This document shows positions 52,075 to 61,569 of a stretch of DNA of 64,000 bases, piece by piece (position 1 is the first letter of the stretch; each line of letters begins with the position of its first letter). The stretch spans positions 80,813 to 144,812 of the forward strand of contig JBJFGS010000025.1 in assembly GCA_051892935.1 (NCBI GenBank). The letters are read 5' to 3'. Source of the DNA: Candidatus Coprovivens sp. GTDB taxonomy: Bacteria; Bacillota_I; Bacilli_A; RF39; UBA660. A program made the position numbers and the translations under genes. Under the pieces are notes generated by a model, which was not told the DNA's origin, did not search any database, and saw only the letters and a program-made list of their open reading frames with translations.

Positions 52075-53850
52075 CTATTCTTTATTATATTTACTATCCA
52101 AGTATTCTTTTAATTCGATAGCTACATTAGTTGGTAATATTTCCTCTACTTCTTGAAGTGTTGCTTCTCTCATTTTCGCTATACTACCAAATTTTTTTAT
52201 TAATTGTTTCTTTCTAACAGGCCCAATCCCTTCAATATCATCTAAAACACTACTTATACTGCCTTTACTTCTAAGTGTTCTATGATAATTTATAGTGAAT
52301 CTATGTACTTCATCTTGCATTCTTGTCAAATAATGAAATACGTTACTCATTCTATCTATATTAATAACACTTAAATCAGAAGAAATCAAGTCATTAGTTC
52401 TATGTTTATCATTCTTTTTTAAACCAACAACCATTATATTAAGATGTAAAAGTTCTAATATTTCTTTTGCAGCTCTAATTTGATTCTCTCCTCCATCTAC
52501 AATAATCAACTCTGGAAGACTTGTTTTATCAACTAAAGCTCTCTGATACCTTCTATATAATATTTCCTTCATCGTATTATAATCATCATTTACATCAACT
52601 GAAACTTTATATTTACGATATTCATTTTTAGCAGGCTTACCATCAATAAATACTACCATACCAGAAACAGCAAAACTACCAAAAAGATTTGAATTATCAA
52701 AAACATCAATTCTATAAATAGAATCCAAACCTAATATCTTAGCTAATTCATCATTAGCTTTACTAGTCATAACTTCATCTTTTTTTATTTCTTCAAATCT
52801 ATTATTCAAATTAAGCTTAGCATTATCAAAAGCCATCTCTAATAAATCTTTTTTAACACCTTTCTGCGGAATAATAAAGTTAGTATTAACTACAGATTTT
52901 AAATTTTCTATATTTAATGAATCAGGAATTAAAATTTCTTTTGGGATCTCATTTCTACTATAAAATTTAGCAATATAATACTCAATATCATCATTAATAT
53001 CTAAATTAATTGGAAATATTTCATTCTTATGATTTAATAACTTACCATTTCTAATAAATAATATTTCAATAGATAAATAACCATTATCAACAAAATAAGA
53101 AATAACATCTCTATTAACAAAATCATGCAATTCGACTTTTTGTTTATCTAAAACAATATCAATATACTCTAATTCTTTCTTTAAATCCAAAGCCATTTCA
53201 AAGTTTAAATTTTCACTATACTTAGTAATTTTATCCATAATCTTATTTCTAAGTATTTCATCATTACCTCTTAAAAAAGATAGTATTTCATTTTCCATAT
53301 CAACTATTTTATCTTTATCTATTTTATTACTACAATAACCTAAACATTCACCAATATGATAATATAAACATACTTCTTTAGGATTACCTTCGCACTTTTT
53401 TAGAGGATATAATCTATTAAGCAAGTTTACTATTCTTCTAGCAGCATAAGCATTAGGATATGGACCAAATAGTTTTTTTCCATCTTTCTTCCTAATATTT
53501 AGATATCTTGATACTTTAAGTTTAGGATATGGATCACTAATATACTCAATATAAGGATAACTCTTATCATCAGTAAGCATAATATTATACTTAGGATTAA
53601 ATTCCTTAATTAAATTAATTTCTATTATAAATGCTTCAAGTTCAGAAGAAGCTACAATATATTGAAAGTCCTCAATTAAACTAACCATTTTCGCCGTTTT
53701 ACCAGTATGAACCCTATTAAAATAAGAAGAAAGTCTTTTATTCAAATCTTTAGCTTTTCCAACATAAATAATATTCCCATTCTTATCTTTCATTTGATAA
53801 GAACCAGGTTTATGAGGTACTAAAGCTAATTTATCTTTAAATTTCATCAT
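52075..53850 (-). CDS. uvrC: excinuclease ABC subunit C
   Basis: GIY-YIG N-terminus (GSYQMKDKNGNIIYVGKAKDLNKRLSSYF), UvrBC and HhH regions. 591 aa. Confidence 0.9.
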   Translation of the reverse strand: MMKFKDKLALVPHKPGSYQMKDKNGNIIYVGKAKDLNKRLSSYFNRVHTGKTAKMVSLIEDFQYIVASSELEAFIIEINLIKEFNPKYNIMLTDDKSYPYIEYISDPYPKLKVSRYLNIRKKDGKKLFGPYPNAYAARRIVNLLNRLYPLKKCEGNPKEVCLYYHIGECLGYCSNKIDKDKIVDMENEILSFLRGNDEILRNKIMDKITKYSENLNFEMALDLKKELEYIDIVLDKQKVELHDFVNRDVISYFVDNGYLSIEILFIRNGKLLNHKNEIFPINLDINDDIEYYIAKFYSRNEIPKEILIPDSLNIENLKSVVNTNFIIPQKGVKKDLLEMAFDNAKLNLNNRFEEIKKDEVMTSKANDELAKILGLDSIYRIDVFDNSNLFGSFAVSGMVVFIDGKPAKNEYRKYKVSVDVNDDYNTMKEILYRRYQRALVDKTSLPELIIVDGGENQIRAAKEILELLHLNIMVVGLKKNDKHRTNDLISSDLSVINIDRMSNVFHYLTRMQDEVHRFTINYHRTLRSKGSISSVLDDIEGIGPVRKKQLIKKFGSIAKMREATLQEVEEILPTNVAIELKEYLDSKYNKE

Positions 53851-54310
53851 CTACCTCCTTATTTAACAAATAATTATAAAGAGCTAAACACCCTTCATTA
53901 ATTTCATTATAAGCAGTATCAAAATCTCCACTATACCACGGATCATCTATATCTTTATTACTACCAGTAAATTCCAATAATAAATGAATTTTATTATCAA
54001 CATCAGGTCCAACTATTTGTATAACATCTCTTTTATTTCTCTGTTCCATTACAATAATATAATTATATAAATTATAATCTTCTCTTTTTATTTGAGTAGC
54101 CTTATGACTTTCACAAGTAACTCCCTCACTAACAAGTTTTTGTCTTGCTTGAGGATACATTTCATGACCAAGTTCTTCTATACTAGTAGCTCTTGATGCA
54201 CAAGTAAACATATAACGTTTACTATTCTTATATATAAGATCTTTAAAAATCATTTCAGCCATAGGACTTCTACAAATATTTCCATAGCATACAAACAGAA
54301 TGTTATACAT
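53837..54310 (-). CDS. low-molecular-weight protein-tyrosine phosphatase
   Basis: CX5R P-loop (VCYGNICRS) and a DPWY Asp loop. 157 aa. Confidence 0.85.
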   Translation of the reverse strand: MYNILFVCYGNICRSPMAEMIFKDLIYKNSKRYMFTCASRATSIEELGHEMYPQARQKLVSEGVTCESHKATQIKREDYNLYNYIIVMEQRNKRDVIQIVGPDVDNKIHLLLEFTGSNKDIDDPWYSGDFDTAYNEINEGCLALYNYLLNKEVDDEI

Positions 54311-54361: not shown

Positions 54362-54577
54362 CTATCTTTTTTTGGCTTTTTTCTTTTCATCAGAAGTGGT
54401 ATAAGAAGTTACGTTACTATGAACCATTTCTGCAAAAAGAGAGTTTGATATTACTTCATTCATATCTTCACCATCCAAAAGCGAATCAACAAATTGTAAT
54501 TCATCATTTTCATCATACCTTTTAACAATTTTCAATCCTTCTTTTAAAGAAATCAACTTTTCTTTTTCATTACTCAT
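54362..54577 (-). CDS. small acidic protein (71 aa), translationally coupled to the giant ORF
   Basis: Its start overlaps the stop of the 2331 aa gene (ATGA). Acidic core with a Lys-rich tail. Confidence 0.4.
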   Translation of the reverse strand: MSNEKEKLISLKEGLKIVKRYDENDELQFVDSLLDGEDMNEVISNSLFAEMVHSNVTSYTTSDEKKKAKKR

Positions 54578-57500
54578 AATGTAACTCCTCCACTCTTTTT
54601 AAGATTCTCTAATTCTAAAACATACTCTTCCATCTTAATAATAGCATCATTTCTTCTTTTCAAAATCAACTCTAATACTTGATCAGCTTTATCTTTACCT
54701 AAAGAAACGGCATATTTTCTAAATAAATCCTTATAATCATCATCACTTAAAAGTTTAACTTTATTTATTGTATCAGTAATAACAGATAAATCAAGATCTA
54801 TTTCTCCGTTCCTATACCTAGTAAATAATATTTGATAAATAGGAATACGATGATTACCATTAGGAGTAAAAGAATAATCTGCATTCAATGTTCTATCATC
54901 ACTTATAAACCTAAACGATTGTTCTTTGTCAATTCCTCTCAAATTATTTGAACTATCTATAATAAAATTTCCAACATAACAATCAAAATTACATAGTAAA
55001 AAGTCAATAACATATTCTCTTAGCAAAGCAGAAGAATAACAATAATCTAACTCTCCACCTTTATTAACCCAATCCTTAAGTACATCAGAATTATCCTCAC
55101 TTATCTCCACTAATTCTTGTTTAGAAAATCTCAATTTACCCCCAATACTCTCAACTCTTACTGAAGTACCAGGAGATAAAAATTCTTGTAATTTAGAAGC
55201 CGCTTCTTGAATATCAGCTCTAAAAGGTTGTAAAGCATAGTTATTTTTATCTACTGCTGGTTTTAGTAAGAAACTATCATCATCAATATCATATCTATAC
55301 ATAATTCCAGACTCTCCCAAATTAGCAGTTTCAAGAGCTACAATTTCTTCTTTAGACATTCCTCTTAAAACAGTTAAAGTTTTTCTAAAAAGACCAATAC
55401 GAGTCAATTCTTTTTTACAGTCAGGTAAATCAACTATTATTTGACAAACAATGCTTTCCATCTCGTATAAAGATTTACACAAATAATCAAAAGATATTTC
55501 ACTATTACGATACTTATCATTCAAAATAGTTAAACAATAATCTACTTTTTCTTTTATACTAACATTTGGATTATTCTCTTGTATCCCATCAAAGAATATA
55601 GAATACATCAACGAATAATTAGGACTAATTTTAAAATCAGCTTTAGCTTTCTTTAAATCTTCCACTTTCTTAGTATCATAAGCATAAACATCAAATTTAA
55701 TAATTGGAACATCAACTCCAAGAAAATCACTAAAATACTTAGCAGCCCTAATTGTAGCCTCATTTGGTACATCACCAACACAAGCCAAAGCACAAGGAAG
55801 CATACCTTCTCTAAAACCAGCTACTTCATTATAAGAACAATGCTTATAACAACTACACTGATTAAGAGCATTCAAATTTGTAAAAGCATTAATATTAGCA
55901 GTTGGTTCAATCTTATAACCACCATGCTCAACAAATAAATCTCTACCATTCATAAAAAGCATAAAACTCTTAGGTAAACTATTAAACAAATAAACAACAC
56001 CATTATTATCTCTATTATTTATAAACCAAAATCCTTTATCGGAAATACTAGATGTAGATAATGTCGAAGCTCCTTCTAACTTAGTCCATAAAGAAGGATC
56101 ATTAATTAACATCTCCTTAAAACCAGACATATTAGTATCATAAGAATAAATCCTATGGACTAAAAAATTAAACTTTTCAGAATTCATTTCAATAATAGTA
56201 ACACCATAAGGATTATTAGGATCACCCTTATCAATACGTTTACTTTTCAAATCCTCAATATTAGTAAGTCTTCCATTAAATTGATAATTATGTAACAATC
56301 TAATCTTAGCAATAATATTTCTCACTTCATCACAATAATCTAAAACTCCTGCATTGTCATTTATAAGTTTAGTCATTAAATCTTTTAATTCATTGATATT
56401 TTGAGATTCTATAATTCTACTCATTAATGTAATAATAGCTACATCTTTCTTATTGTAAAAACATTCTTTAAATATTTGATTAGCTCTTTCCAAACCATAA
56501 CATTCTATAATATCTTCTCGTAAAGTTTTTAGATTTAAATAATTATTTAATTGGAAATTATTAAAATCTTTTGCTAAAGAAGCGATATCAGCATATCCAA
56601 ATAAAGTAGCTAAAACATTCTTAATTTCAGCAATATTATTCGAATTTAATTTAATCATCCAAAAATCTTGTGTTTTCTTTTCATATTGTTTAAGTTCATC
56701 ATATGTTTTAATATCATACAAATTATTGCCTATAATAACTTTTCTAAGATTAGAAATATCAATTTCACTTAATTCATAATTTGAATTACAAATATCAATT
56801 ATTAACTCTTTATACTTATCAAAATTCCTAAAAGCATAATGAACTCTTTTATCATCATTATCAAACAAATTATAACGACAAACAATATCATAATAACTAC
56901 TAAGTAAATTAGCATTATTAGCTTTTATTTCTTTAGATATCACTGAAACAGCAGGTGTATTATATTTAATAACATCAAGTACAAATTCAAGACCAAATAA
57001 CGGATAAATATATTTAACAACATCATAATTAAAAACAGGATTCTTTTCTAAAGTATTTAATTTACCATTAGATTTTAAAATAAATAAAGCATTCTTAAAA
57101 ACAATTTGTAAATCACTATCAAATATTTCAAGATCAATAAATGGTAAAACTGTTACAATCTTTCTGAAAGTAAAACCATTTTCATTAGTCAAATCACTAT
57201 CGTAAGAATTAATAGCATTTGCAAAAACACTTCTAATAACATTATCATTTTTATCTATTAATCTAAAATCCTTCAAATTACTAAGTAAAAAATCAGCAAC
57301 GAAAAAACAATTATTCTTATTATTAATATCAAAATTTGAAAAATGAATAATCTTCAAAACTTTAGAAACCGATAATAAATGTCTATCAATAGTCGAAAAA
57401 TCATCTATATAAGCAAAAGTACGTTCATTCAAAAATTCCAGAGGAAGTTGAAATAAAATTGAAGGAGCAGTTTTTAAAGCAGCCACAACCATTTCCTCAT

Positions 57501-60500
57501 CTATTTCAATTAAAGAAGAAATTCTAGTTAAATAATAACCATTAATAGACAAAGCCTTTAAAACTAATTCCCTATATCTTTCCATAGTATTAGGAAATAG
57601 AAATATTAAATCAGAATTATAATCAAGAACAGTAAAACATAAATCAAAATCTTTCTTTAAAAAATCAGGTAAATAATTATAAACACAACCATTTTTATAT
57701 TCAACCAGCTTTAAAGCAGTCTCTTTATCATTTATCAAATTAGGTATAAAAGTAAATACAATAGGATATTCTAACAAATGATCTTTTGCATACCTAACAA
57801 TAATATCTAAAGAATGATTCGCATATGCAAAAGTACTTTCATCAAGTTTCATAGCATAATCAAGAATATCAATATCATCTTTAAAAGTATCACTTAAGTA
57901 AAAATAAACGCTTGAAGCGGAATCCTTTTTCATTAGTTTAAATATAATTTCTTTATTATTTAAAATAGAAGGAACATACTTATATAAAGAAGGATAATCA
58001 TCTATAATATTTGTAACACTATTAATAATATCTTGATCATTACAATCAACATATTTAATATAAAACAAAGGATCATCTAAAAAATACTTCTTAGCCATAT
58101 CATATTTTTTTTGAATAAATATTTCCAAATCAGTAAAATTATTAGCAAACCACTCTACTACATATTTTTTATCAGAACAAGAATTAAGTATATCATCTAT
58201 AATCGTTAAAGATTCTTTTTCTTTAGGTAATTCATTCAACCTCAATAAAACAGTAAAGTTTTCTTTACTTGAATAGTCAAAATTATAATACAACGAAGCA
58301 TCAATTCCAAAAGAATTAAGAAATTCCTTAAAAGGTCCATCAATATACCAATTATTTCTAAAAAAAATTGTAAAATCATAAATAAAATCATATTTATTCT
58401 CACTATAAATTTCAGAAAGTATATCCTTAAGTAATAAATATAAAGAATCATCAACTTCATTAATTAAATCTTTTCCTATCTGTAATAAAGATTGTATTCC
58501 TAGATTTTTAAGTATTTCCCTATCAACCTCAACGCCATTTTTTAAAGCAACTGAAACAGTATGTGAAGAAGATTTAAAAGAAAAATTATACCCACTCTTA
58601 AAAGCTAATAAAACATAATCATCATCTACATAGCCATGATAATAATCTAAAACACTAGGATAAAAAGAAACAATTTCCTTTACCACTTCAGAATTTAAAT
58701 ATCGAGCATCAATATAACTAAGTATTAAAGGATTTTCCTTTATAAGTTCAACAACTGAATTAGAACTCATATCATAATAAAATAACTTACTACATAATTC
58801 AGGTTGTTCTCTAGCAATAATCTTTAATAAATTAATATCTCTTCTCTGTTCAACATTTAACAATTTTATAATATCAGGATTTTTTCTAACAAACGAAGCC
58901 AAAGAATGATAATTATTTACAATATCAGAAAAAAAGATAATATATCTAGAGTCAGAATCAATTCTACTTCGTAAATACATTAACTCATCATCTGAAAAAC
59001 TGATTTTCTTAATAAAAGAATTAAAATATTTATTAGTAAGAATCTGTTCTTCAGGAAAATAGCCACCTAATAAAGCTTTTTTCAAAACATCTTCTTCAAT
59101 TCTGTCATAATAATATGATATAAAATCATAAAATCCCATTATAACCATTTTTCTTATAAGAAAAATTTTAGTATCAGTATTTATAGAATAAGAATTAATA
59201 ATTTCACGTATCTTATCAACACTTAAATATTTTAACAATTTAGTAAGTAAAACTTTATTATTTATAGTACTAGAAGACAAATCAACATAATTAAAAAGAA
59301 CATATTCATTTTCATCAATTTCATCAAGAAGTACTTTATCACTAACACCAATAATCTTTTGCATTTTTACAATACTATTCTTATTAAAACCAGTTCTATA
59401 CATTTTTAAAATAATACTAGAACTATCATAAATATAAAGACTAGAATTACTCTCAGATAATTTTACAAATAGATTAACAAGTTCTTGTTCATATTCAATT
59501 TTAATAAATCTACTAATAACTAAAGCATTCATAACAGGATGCTTTTTAAACATTTCAAAATTATATCCTGATTCAAATAAAAAATCGATATCTTCATCAG
59601 AAAAATTATTAATTACATCAAGTATTTCAAATCTATTATTTAAAATGTATTTTCTCATCAATAATGAATTAAAAATCGCCGAAGAACATAAATCCTTTGA
59701 ATCAGGTAAATAACCATTCAATAAACTATAATATAAATCAACTGCTTCCTTACAATCATTCCCATAAAAATGCAAATACTTAATTCCTCTATCATCACCT
59801 TTTTTTAAAAGAAATACAACTGAATCAAGAGATAAATCTGTAAAATCATTAATATATGGAAGAATATCATCAAAAGAAATACCGCTTAAAATAGCTTTTT
59901 CAATAACAGAACGAGTAGGATTATTCTTTAATAAATCCATCAAATAACTAGAATCATACTCAATAAATTTTTCTTTTAATATTGGAATATTCTGAACAAC
60001 TAATGGCAAAGAAATATATTTTTCATATGAAATATCTTTTAAACCTATTTTTTCTAAATCAAAATCACTTAAATACAAATTTTCAGTAGCTAATACATCG
60101 TAATGGCCTTCATTAACAAACTTATATATAATATCTTTAGACAAATCACATTTACCATATTTAGAAATAGCTTCTTCATACATACTATATGTAATATAAT
60201 CCAAATAACTATTAACTAAATTTTTATCGTTTGAATAAAGTAAAGGCAAATACATTCCCTTTTGTACAAACGCCTCAATGAAAACATTTTTATTAGTATT
60301 ACGAGAAAGATTAATAGCAAAATCATCCACTGTAAGACCATTATCAATAAGTTCTAAAGCAACAGGTAAAGAAATAGAAAAGCTACTATAAGAACGATAT
60401 TTATCCCAATCACGAGAAACAACACAATATAAAAAATTAATTTCCTCAGAATTCCTATAATCATCTTTTAACTGATATATACCACTTTTAACAAGTTCTA

Positions 60501-61569
60501 AAACATAATTAAAACAATTAATATCAGTCAATACCGAAGTCAAACCACCTATTAATGAATAATCATTATTTACTACAAAATATCTAGCAAGAGGAAAAGA
60601 ATCTAAAATATTAGTAAAAGAGTTAATTCTTTCTAAAGAAATATTATTATTTTGAATAAAGTTTATAACATCCTCATTAACAGCTTCTTTAGAAGCATAC
60701 ATTAAAGCATCAATTTTACCATCCTGTAAAAGATTTAATAATAAAGGAGAACTTTTTTTATAAGACCCATCATATAAAGAATAATCATAAAAAGAAAAGT
60801 CAGAATAATTAACTAAATCAGCAGAAGGATTAGAAGCTAAAACTAAAGCTTTACTACCTCCTATATCAATAAATCTTTTTACAATATTTTCATCATTCAA
60901 AATTGAAATATCATGATCATTCATATACATAGTAATTATATATTCAAAAAAAGCCTTAAAATCAAAATCACATTTAGATAATTCAATTAATAAATTAGAA
61001 AAATCAGCTTTAAAATTATTAGAATATCTAAAATATTTTCCCAAATATTTATAATTGTTATTGGAAATCATTAAAGCTGCAAGCTTAGGACTAATACTAT
61101 AAGAATGTTCAACTAACAAATCGACTTTATCAGGATAAAGAATATATATATCATATTGAAAACTACCTAAAATCTCAAATTTTTTCAAAATATCATCTAT
61201 AGAAACACCATTATTCAAATAATAATTTAAGTCATTTAAATCAAAAATAGCTCCATGAACATCAGTATATTCCTTATCACGATAAAAGTAATCTAATAAA
61301 GAATAATAAAACTCATCCGAAATGAAAAGTTTAGAATAAAATAAGTTATCAAGCCCATTATCAAAATCTAATTCACTAATAAATTCTTCATCACCAATAT
61401 ATTTATCAACAAATAAGAAATAATCATTATGAATTTTATCTCTAAGAGTATTCAATATATAATCAATATCTCTTTCTAAATAATCAGTATCAATATTATA
61501 TTTTTTAAATATTTCAAGCAAGGAATCTTCCTCTAACAATTTCAAAAATTTAATAACATCTTCGTGCAT
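54574..61569 (-). CDS. giant cytoplasmic protein (2331 aa), Asn/Tyr/Asp/Leu-rich, with a C-terminal region carrying a kinase-like catalytic-loop signature
   Basis: Uninterrupted 6996 nt ORF. RBS AAAATAGGTG and a TATAAT upstream. No signal peptide and no P-loop. The motif FDCYVGNFIID-x7-GIDKE lies about 136 residues from the C-terminus. Confidence 0.7.
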   Translation of the reverse strand: MHEDVIKFLKLLEEDSLLEIFKKYNIDTDYLERDIDYILNTLRDKIHNDYFLFVDKYIGDEEFISELDFDNGLDNLFYSKLFISDEFYYSLLDYFYRDKEYTDVHGAIFDLNDLNYYLNNGVSIDDILKKFEILGSFQYDIYILYPDKVDLLVEHSYSISPKLAALMISNNNYKYLGKYFRYSNNFKADFSNLLIELSKCDFDFKAFFEYIITMYMNDHDISILNDENIVKRFIDIGGSKALVLASNPSADLVNYSDFSFYDYSLYDGSYKKSSPLLLNLLQDGKIDALMYASKEAVNEDVINFIQNNNISLERINSFTNILDSFPLARYFVVNNDYSLIGGLTSVLTDINCFNYVLELVKSGIYQLKDDYRNSEEINFLYCVVSRDWDKYRSYSSFSISLPVALELIDNGLTVDDFAINLSRNTNKNVFIEAFVQKGMYLPLLYSNDKNLVNSYLDYITYSMYEEAISKYGKCDLSKDIIYKFVNEGHYDVLATENLYLSDFDLEKIGLKDISYEKYISLPLVVQNIPILKEKFIEYDSSYLMDLLKNNPTRSVIEKAILSGISFDDILPYINDFTDLSLDSVVFLLKKGDDRGIKYLHFYGNDCKEAVDLYYSLLNGYLPDSKDLCSSAIFNSLLMRKYILNNRFEILDVINNFSDEDIDFLFESGYNFEMFKKHPVMNALVISRFIKIEYEQELVNLFVKLSESNSSLYIYDSSSIILKMYRTGFNKNSIVKMQKIIGVSDKVLLDEIDENEYVLFNYVDLSSSTINNKVLLTKLLKYLSVDKIREIINSYSINTDTKIFLIRKMVIMGFYDFISYYYDRIEEDVLKKALLGGYFPEEQILTNKYFNSFIKKISFSDDELMYLRSRIDSDSRYIIFFSDIVNNYHSLASFVRKNPDIIKLLNVEQRRDINLLKIIAREQPELCSKLFYYDMSSNSVVELIKENPLILSYIDARYLNSEVVKEIVSFYPSVLDYYHGYVDDDYVLLAFKSGYNFSFKSSSHTVSVALKNGVEVDREILKNLGIQSLLQIGKDLINEVDDSLYLLLKDILSEIYSENKYDFIYDFTIFFRNNWYIDGPFKEFLNSFGIDASLYYNFDYSSKENFTVLLRLNELPKEKESLTIIDDILNSCSDKKYVVEWFANNFTDLEIFIQKKYDMAKKYFLDDPLFYIKYVDCNDQDIINSVTNIIDDYPSLYKYVPSILNNKEIIFKLMKKDSASSVYFYLSDTFKDDIDILDYAMKLDESTFAYANHSLDIIVRYAKDHLLEYPIVFTFIPNLINDKETALKLVEYKNGCVYNYLPDFLKKDFDLCFTVLDYNSDLIFLFPNTMERYRELVLKALSINGYYLTRISSLIEIDEEMVVAALKTAPSILFQLPLEFLNERTFAYIDDFSTIDRHLLSVSKVLKIIHFSNFDINNKNNCFFVADFLLSNLKDFRLIDKNDNVIRSVFANAINSYDSDLTNENGFTFRKIVTVLPFIDLEIFDSDLQIVFKNALFILKSNGKLNTLEKNPVFNYDVVKYIYPLFGLEFVLDVIKYNTPAVSVISKEIKANNANLLSSYYDIVCRYNLFDNDDKRVHYAFRNFDKYKELIIDICNSNYELSEIDISNLRKVIIGNNLYDIKTYDELKQYEKKTQDFWMIKLNSNNIAEIKNVLATLFGYADIASLAKDFNNFQLNNYLNLKTLREDIIECYGLERANQIFKECFYNKKDVAIITLMSRIIESQNINELKDLMTKLINDNAGVLDYCDEVRNIIAKIRLLHNYQFNGRLTNIEDLKSKRIDKGDPNNPYGVTIIEMNSEKFNFLVHRIYSYDTNMSGFKEMLINDPSLWTKLEGASTLSTSSISDKGFWFINNRDNNGVVYLFNSLPKSFMLFMNGRDLFVEHGGYKIEPTANINAFTNLNALNQCSCYKHCSYNEVAGFREGMLPCALACVGDVPNEATIRAAKYFSDFLGVDVPIIKFDVYAYDTKKVEDLKKAKADFKISPNYSLMYSIFFDGIQENNPNVSIKEKVDYCLTILNDKYRNSEISFDYLCKSLYEMESIVCQIIVDLPDCKKELTRIGLFRKTLTVLRGMSKEEIVALETANLGESGIMYRYDIDDDSFLLKPAVDKNNYALQPFRADIQEAASKLQEFLSPGTSVRVESIGGKLRFSKQELVEISEDNSDVLKDWVNKGGELDYCYSSALLREYVIDFLLCNFDCYVGNFIIDSSNNLRGIDKEQSFRFISDDRTLNADYSFTPNGNHRIPIYQILFTRYRNGEIDLDLSVITDTINKVKLLSDDDYKDLFRKYAVSLGKDKADQVLELILKRRNDAIIKMEEYVLELENLKKSGGVTL

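Follow-up and report, generated by a model that had tools for sequence, protein, structure and literature searches.

Locus and giant open reading frame

The stretch analysed here (the window) comprises 64,000 nucleotides of a Candidatus Coprovivens sp. genome and encodes on its minus strand a giant protein of 2331 amino acids (aa), whose last ~260 residues are predicted to form a divergent protein-kinase-like (PKL) domain that recurs in other proteins, including those of phages. The original prediction, made from a short motif resembling the catalytic loop of kinases, had placed a divergent kinase or pseudokinase domain near the C-terminus of this protein, and a kinase-type domain at this position is supported by both fold and residue conservation. 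The two features treated first are the following (all coordinates are those of the window).

54574..61569, minus strand: giant open reading frame (ORF), 2331 aa, ATG start, stop codon within the coordinates
54577..55350, minus strand: predicted PKL domain, aa 2074-2331 of the giant (last ~260 residues), assigned to the HipA/PI3-4K-like branch

Fold of the C-terminal domain

Modelled with AlphaFold2 on the basis of the homolog alignment, aa 2041-2331 reached a pLDDT of 84.9 and a pTM of 0.83. In the N-terminal part of the model, a strand is followed by the Gly-rich loop (G-loop), a second strand, the strand bearing the Lys, a long helix and two further strands; the C-terminal part consists of helices, the catalytic loop, two short strands, the metal-binding Asp and further helices. 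As modelled, this order of elements fits a kinase core. Foldseek found 135 PDB matches with E<=1e-3, the best-ranked of which were all kinases (probability 0.95-1.00). The top match was Helicobacter pylori CtkA (3akl; TMq 0.49, E 5e-5), and PI3K-gamma, PI3K-alpha, EphA2, Myt1, PRPK and the pseudokinase domain of RNase L were also among the best-ranked. Among predicted viral structures (BFVD), the top match was gp16 of Mycobacterium phage Onyinye (TMq 0.64, 21% identity, E 8.5e-10), followed by phage proteins named PI3/4-kinase catalytic domain. The TM-scores were modest, reaching 0.50 in the PDB and 0.64 in BFVD.

Motif and catalytic residues

The motif on which the original prediction was founded (LLREYVIDFLLCNFDCYVGNFIIDSSNNLRGIDKEQSF) was located at aa 2182-2219 (window 54913-55026), with its catalytic-type Asp (D2196) 136 residues before the C-terminus, as claimed. 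The kinase-type spacing that had been read into it stood in part: D-x4-N-h3-D (h, hydrophobic) is present, but the expected gap of x6-8 is not, since only four residues (SSNN) lead from D2205 to L-R-G-I-D, and the literal x6-8 pattern has no match in the giant. A pattern relaxed to x3-8 has this single match when the window is translated in all six frames, and it occurs in 0.5% of shuffled versions of the giant protein; a looser version occurs in 19% of them. Residue conservation was scored over 208 domain copies (23 from the giant clade and 185 non-giant), giving the following predicted catalytic elements.

55306..55317, minus strand: Gly-rich nucleotide loop G2085-E-S-G2088, before beta2 in the model; G2085 in 179/208 copies, G2088 in 141/208
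55261..55263, minus strand: K2103, beta3 Lys in F-L-L-K-P; Lys in 201/208 copies, invariant in alignment A1
54967..55005, minus strand: catalytic loop D2189-FLLC-N2194-F-D2196-C-Y2198-VG-N2201; D2189 in 208/208 copies, D2196 in 204/208, N2201 in 197/208
54919..54930, minus strand: metal-binding 'DFG-equivalent' D2214-K-E-Q; D2214 in 206/208 copies, K2215 in 207/208, E2216 in 197/208

The two upstream elements that had been proposed as a check, a Gly-rich loop and a VAIK-type (beta3-type) Lys (FLLK2103P), are both present and conserved, and the motif itself is conserved in homologs. K2103, D2196, N2201 and D2214 are retained in 95-99% of the 208 copies and in 21-23 of the 23 giants; with G2085 and G2088 included, conservation of the catalytic set ranges from 68 to 99%. 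Q2151 is likewise conserved (203/208). Across the homolog alignment, the family is marked by a G-x-[ST]-G loop, an invariant K-P, the sequence D-x4-N-x-D-x4-N and I-D-K-E-Q. The replacement of the His/Arg neighbours of the catalytic Asp, also noted in the original prediction, is real and a peculiarity of the giant clade: 21 of the 23 giants have F or Y at position 2198, as compared with H in 115 and K in 52 of the 185 non-giant copies. The giant clade has thus undergone a clade-specific loss of the His from the D-x-H-x-x-N typical of the family. In P0003, a 984-aa fragment of a giant ortholog, the G-loop glycines are lost and N-F-N-C-S-Y-K-K replaces N-F-D-x-x-x-G-N; this is probably an inactivated (pseudokinase) copy inside the giant clade.

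The motif taken alone is suggestive, and it is homology and fold that make the kinase assignment decisive. Residues ~2074-2331 are regarded as a genuine protein-kinase-like catalytic domain, with a bilobal PKL fold in the model. Neither of the two outcomes that would have contradicted the original prediction, a lack of kinase-fold matches or a motif not kept in homologs, was observed.

Family size and relation to known kinases

A search with aa 1724-2331 of the giant recovered 31 unnamed metagenomic proteins and identified aa ~2075-2331 as a mobile domain, which recurs in ~650-aa proteins (at aa ~290-550). When a domain profile was run exhaustively with HMMER, 1405 cluster representatives (clustering at 50% identity) scored E<=1e-3, 944 of them E<=1e-10, so that the family, as delimited by this profile, comprises at least 1405 such clusters. 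It is absent from the curated libraries searched (Pfam, NCBIfam, PHROGs and PADLOC). Pfam and NCBIfam scans of the giant and its C-terminal fragments returned DUF4116 only, and no PHROG matched the giant. A survey of PKL families from 2026 is, as far as its text shows, unrelated to the present family.

The kinase relationship is visible only via the fold and via weak, recurrent Pfam matches of individual members. When 30 diverse family members were scanned singly, HipA_C was matched by 11 (best E 2.9e-4) and PI3_PI4_kinase by seven (best E 3.3e-3), and these were the only Pfam families matched by more than one member. All of these scores lie below the gathering thresholds (30.5 bits for HipA_C, 27.1 bits for PI3_PI4_kinase), as do those of Onyinye gp16 against HipA_C (18.2 bits) and of P0022 against PF00454 (17.2 bits, E 0.005). 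Alignment of the family profile with Escherichia coli HipA by hhalign gave a probability of 21% and placed D2196, Y2198, N2201 and D2214 onto HipA D309, H311, N314 and D332, respectively; the controls, the APH-type kinase SrkA and DsbA, gave 1.9% and 0.4%. No match to Pkinase (PF00069) was obtained for the giant or the 30 relatives, and HRD and APE motifs are absent from the giant. Judged by these comparisons, the domain appears to lie nearer the branch of HipA and the PI3/4-kinases than the eukaryotic-like kinases of HRD type. It represents a distinct family in the HipA/PI3-4K-like part of the kinase superfamily that belongs to neither Pfam family by their own thresholds.

Phage and cassette contexts of the family

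IMG/VR was sampled with a single peptide pattern, which yielded 109 viral contigs carrying the domain, 80 of which were kept. The domain-bearing ORF in these 80 loci has a median length of 1140 aa, with a MuF-like N-terminus in 69 and a common ~500-aa C-terminal module in 79 of them; in P0062, matches to both Phage_Mu_F and a head-morphogenesis PHROG were obtained. Among sequenced phages, the domain was found in mycobacteriophages only (eight records). The respective protein is annotated as an ADP-ribosyltransferase (ART) or a capsid-ART fusion in five of these phages (six records, Onyinye having been deposited twice) and as a hypothetical protein in two others. In Onyinye gp16, the kinase-like domain spans aa ~193-400 and ADPrib_exo_Tox aa 1158-1332; the gene lies just upstream of the terminase and portal genes. 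Of 176 members retrieved, 50 share a ~500-aa module after the kinase domain, containing a Rho_N-like motif in P0062, and 40 have two tandem domain copies (including P0081, P0084, P0085 and P0089).

A second context is a four-gene cassette encoding a PHP/nucleotidyltransferase (796 aa), a ~660-aa kinase-like protein, an ankyrin (Ank)-repeat protein (217 aa) and Imm33 (106 aa), which was found at L038:7605-12990 and L042:2-5180; in L041, its first two genes lie beside a Mob_Pre relaxase gene. This arrangement suggests a mobile toxin/immunity-type system. The association with Imm33 and Ank proteins was seen for the ~660-aa relatives only. Together, the phage and cassette contexts suggest that the family takes part in conflicts between genomes.

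Remainder of the giant protein and its gene neighbourhood

The other features of the locus are listed below.

57190..61569, minus strand: fast-diverging N-terminal region of the giant, aa 1-1460, contains DUF4116 repeats
55450..56337, minus strand: C1, second conserved, predicted alpha/beta domain of the giant, aa 1745-2040 (AlphaFold2 pLDDT 84)
54362..54577, minus strand: 71-aa ORF, whose ATG overlaps the stop codon of the giant (ATGA); net charge of the product about -2
53837..54310, minus strand: low-molecular-weight protein-tyrosine phosphatase (LMW-PTP) gene, Pfam LMWPc 3.7e-28; 14-bp overlap with uvrC (52075..53850)

The part of the giant preceding the kinase domain had been described as repeat-poor, which was only partly right, as Pfam detected DUF4116 (E 7.9e-20) in four stretches, the best at aa 1333-1379 (window 57433-57573). 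Nothing functional was found in the literature on DUF4116. Full-length orthologs of the giant (2208-2342 aa) are encoded in L003, L005-L008 and L046. Identity among orthologs is 26-52% in the N-terminal 1460 aa, 39-68% at aa 1460-2040 and 49-72% in the kinase domain, as compared with 81-92% for the neighbouring UvrC, and the invariant residues of seven full-length giants fall into two blocks (aa 1791-1968 and aa 2076-2305). P0045, P0049 and P0051 share with the giant only the C-terminal ~870-1070 aa. The low N-terminal identity relative to UvrC and the existence of relatives sharing the C-terminus only suggest replacement or very rapid evolution of the N-terminus.

In C1, the invariant residues H1805-R1806, S1835-T-L-S-T-S1840 and Y1913-N-E1915 each lie on predicted strands. 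The order of these motifs (H/R...STS...E) resembles that of R/H-STS-E ADP-ribosyltransferases, and the best PDB match in Foldseek was the ubiquitin-directed mono-ART CteC, at a non-significant level (E 0.22, probability 0.66-0.72). Pfam gave no match to C1, which also has no sequence similarity to ADPrib_exo_Tox. A C1 profile search recovered fragments of giants only, so that the domain seems, by sequence, to be restricted to the giant proteins. C1 is possibly ADP-ribosyltransferase-like; with a non-significant CteC match and no Pfam support, this identity was treated as a lead rather than a claim.

The 71-aa ORF begins with MSNEKEKLISLKEGLKIVKRYD. A counterpart of 64-73 aa with the identical overlap was present at all seven ortholog loci extracted (L001-L004, L006, L007 and L046), a comparable reading frame follows the giant in L005, and the counterparts share the N-terminus EKxKLxSLxxGLxxVKKY. 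No Pfam, helix-turn-helix (HTH) or PADLOC match was obtained for the product. The 71-aa ORF is a conserved, translationally coupled partner gene of the giant.

The gene order UPF0029/Impact_N, divergent giant, 71-aa ORF, LMW-PTP and UvrC is conserved across related metagenome-assembled genomes (MAGs), which carry the labels Candidatus Coprovivens, 'uncultured Tenericutes/Bacilli' and Erysipelotrichaceae; the segment from the giant to UvrC is kept in L001, L003, L005, L006 and L046. In L045, the same backbone (nitroreductase, Impact_N, slot, LMW-PTP, UvrC, Fer4, QueA and TGT; LMW-PTP 67% identical) is found with no giant, the slot being filled by an unrelated 558-aa SH3-like protein (L045:8257-9933). 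By eye, the latter has an N-terminal hydrophobic segment and a C-terminal stretch resembling a transmembrane (TM) segment. Because the L045 slot holds an unrelated gene, the giant and the 71-aa ORF are assigned to a variable insertion slot, which lies upstream of the conserved pair LMW-PTP-UvrC. Neither MuF nor any PHROG was matched by the giant, and its neighbours are housekeeping genes, with no prophage setting. Scans for promoters and terminators around its gene stayed at chance level. The G+C content of the window is ~25%. Over about 48 kb (14000-62000), the minus strand carries nearly all of the genes, and the GC skew is strongly negative (-0.22 to -0.49). No tRNA genes were found in the 64-kb window.

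Proposed function and alternative explanations

The explanation that accounts for these observations jointly, and that we hold to be somewhat probable, is that the giant ends in a genuine kinase domain capable of ATP-Mg-dependent phosphotransfer, which serves as an effector-type 'warhead' and has the 71-aa protein as its partner. The domain would bind ATP-Mg, with D2196 acting as the base, and transfer the gamma-phosphate to a target. If HipA, CtkA and the T7 kinase are taken as models, this target would most likely be a Ser/Thr residue in a cytoplasmic protein of bacteria. Its use as a warhead may be read from the MuF fusions and the Ank/Imm33 cassette. In the giant, the putative kinase would be paired with C1 behind a fast-evolving region of ~1460 aa with DUF4116 repeats, and the 71-aa protein might serve, speculatively and by analogy, as an inhibitor, immunity factor or chaperone of the giant. 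Overall, the domain of the giant is most likely an active phosphotransferase effector. The broader notion that the giant itself is a chromosomally fixed effector or toxin-like protein is speculative.

Several observations weigh against this explanation. The gene of the giant is chromosomal and co-inherited with housekeeping neighbours, unlike typical mobile toxins. Its product has no TM segment (top 19-residue Kyte-Doolittle mean 1.36), no signal peptide apparent by eye (no predictor was run) and no Pfam-recognisable secretion or trafficking domain; PADLOC returned no defence-system match for it, and no recognised immunity family was matched at the locus. The giant matches no Pfam kinase family even at E<=1, and searches of PDB sequences with single sequences and profiles (A1, A2, A3 and full-length A4) gave chance-level matches only. 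The catalytic-loop His is exchanged for F or Y in the giant clade, the alphaC position 2122 has no conserved Glu (K in 12 of the 23 giants), and P0003 has neither G-loop, D2196 nor N2201. We know of no member of the family that has been characterised, and the suggested effector or toxin role of the giant, like that of the 71-aa ORF, is drawn by analogy.

The last three residue-level points are also those that would favour a domain with kinase fold that acts as a pseudokinase, catalyses another reaction (such as the AMPylation or glutamylation known from SelO and SidJ) or serves as a nucleotide-binding scaffold; PKL folds are known to be repurposed. The conservation of K2103, D2196, N2201 and D2214 across the family and in 21-23 of the 23 giants is, by contrast, the pattern expected of an active phosphotransferase, and kinases of the eukaryotic protein kinase type work with an Asp base and no catalytic-loop His. 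Because the full Lys/Asp/Asn/Asp set is conserved, activity is favoured over a pseudokinase, and this alternative is considered unlikely, if still of some weight.

Small-molecule or lipid kinase activity of the PI3/4-kinase-like or APH-like type, directed at a metabolite, a cell-envelope precursor or an antibiotic, would be in line with the presence of PI3K-gamma among the top structural matches, the weak PI3_PI4_kinase matches of seven of the 30 members and the phage proteins named PI3K/PI4K catalytic domain among the structural neighbours. Against this, HipA_C matches were both more frequent (11 vs 7 members) and stronger (2.9e-4 vs 3.3e-3), CtkA, the top PDB match, is a protein kinase, the APH-type kinase SrkA aligned poorly (1.9%), and the giant has neither a TM segment nor a membrane-targeting domain recognisable by Pfam. 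A substrate of this kind is accordingly rated as distinctly unlikely. A similarly doubtful elaboration of the effector reading would make the giant a domesticated, phage-derived dual-enzyme weapon, composed of an ART-like and a HipA/PI3K-like kinase domain on a rapidly evolving 1460-aa helical targeting scaffold, with the translationally coupled 71-aa protein as its immunity factor or inhibitor.

A dedicated signalling pair of the kinase domain and the downstream LMW-PTP was also weighed. The original prediction had drawn attention to the phosphatase gene, which indeed lies on the strand of the giant, two genes downstream if the 71-aa ORF is counted. The two genes are co-oriented with no terminator-like site between them, their order is conserved in the five loci named above, and the catalytic motifs of the LMW-PTP are intact (CX5R, as CYGNICRS, and DP, as DDP). 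On the other hand, the phosphatase gene overlaps uvrC rather than the giant, no LMW-PTP was found within 8 kb of the other 29 domain-bearing genome loci, and HipA-type kinases target Ser/Thr, the CYGNICRS loop being apparently of the phosphotyrosine type. Since the LMW-PTP-UvrC pair exists without the giant in L045, where the 558-aa SH3-like protein stands in its place, such a pairing is very improbable. The LMW-PTP is unsupported as a functional hint and was rejected as a leading idea; it is a backbone gene and probably no dedicated partner of the giant.

Finally, a chance match of the motif in an AT-rich, Asp/Asn/Ile-rich protein (9.2% D, 8.3% N, 9.3% I) with no kinase domain, to which the shuffling frequencies of the relaxed (0.5%) and looser (19%) patterns might lend some credit, is refuted by the fold, the residue conservation and the family evidence and retains next to no probability.

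Comparison with known systems

Among known systems, the effector-type kinase proposed here was compared first with the HipA family (HipA_C, PF07804), a member of which, H. pylori CtkA, is the best PDB fold match. Most family members contain N-x-D-x-H-x-x-N, comparable to T-D309-G-H-A-K-N314 of HipA, with the downstream Asp placed onto D332 in the hhalign alignment (21% probability); HipA toxins are deployed in conflict or toxin contexts, as the present family appears to be. In contrast to HipA, the giant has neither the HipA N-terminal domain nor a neighbouring HipB-type HTH antitoxin gene, as judged from Pfam and the adjacent genes; its clade has F or Y in place of the His, and no score reaches the Pfam gathering level. 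The domain forms the end of a 2331-aa protein or is part of phage MuF fusions, whereas HipA is a ~440-aa toxin. With the PI3/PI4-kinases (PF00454), the family shares the spacing of D-x-H-x-x-N and the [IV]-D metal ligand that follows it. It differs from them in that DRHxxN/DFG is replaced by D-C-Y-V-G-N/I-D-K-E-Q in the giant and by D-[AS]-H-x-x-N with an almost invariant D-K-E-Q in the family, and it has no helical and C2 accessory domains. To our knowledge, no phosphoinositide substrate is known in the bacterial host.

Divergent kinase domains within large multidomain proteins of phages and conjugative elements have been described as polyvalent-protein kinases (Iyer, Burroughs, Anand, de Souza, Aravind 2017, PMC5512222). 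Both these and the present family occur in multidomain phage proteins, including MuF fusions, and co-occur with ARTs (PMC5512222). The published kinases are described as having no C-terminal subdomain at all and as occurring mainly in Verrucomicrobia-Chlamydia and Bacteroidetes (PMC5512222). Compared by description only, the present family differs in that ~130 helical residues still follow its metal-binding Asp; members were recovered from MAGs of Bacilli and Clostridia, from mycobacteriophages and from many IMG/VR phages. Its contexts are in line with the polyvalent-protein concept, and the kinase clade of PMC5512222 may or may not be identical with it.

The combination of a kinase-like and an ART domain in MuF-fused phage effectors such as Onyinye gp16 echoes the C1-kinase tandem of the giant. 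Unlike gp16, the giant has no MuF domain and lies outside any prophage; its gene occupies a chromosomal slot, in which it has been conserved by vertical descent. Set beside polymorphic toxin systems, the picture is mixed: the enzyme-like domains of the giant are C-terminal and followed by a conserved, overlapping small ORF, but no secretion domain and no match to a known immunity family were detected.

Significance

What is new is a kinase-like family of at least 1400 clusters with testable catalytic residues, for which the searched versions of Pfam, NCBIfam, PHROGs and PADLOC contain no model and by which one domain becomes annotatable in thousands of hypothetical proteins of 600 to 3500 residues each. 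Its main carriers are phage MuF head proteins, and as these are plausibly packaged and injected, the family is a candidate for a widespread phage-to-host phosphorylation effector. The giants of uncultured gut Bacilli would then represent the same warhead, fixed in the chromosome alongside a small partner gene dedicated to it. If the dual-enzyme reading were true, they would constitute a kind of giant toxin acting inside the cell, or of anti-phage defence module, that has not been described before and that resides in a variable chromosomal slot of low-GC gut Bacilli known mostly from MAGs. If the domain is active, its substrate would reveal HipA-like phosphorylation outside classical toxin-antitoxin modules, in phages as well as in gut Bacilli.

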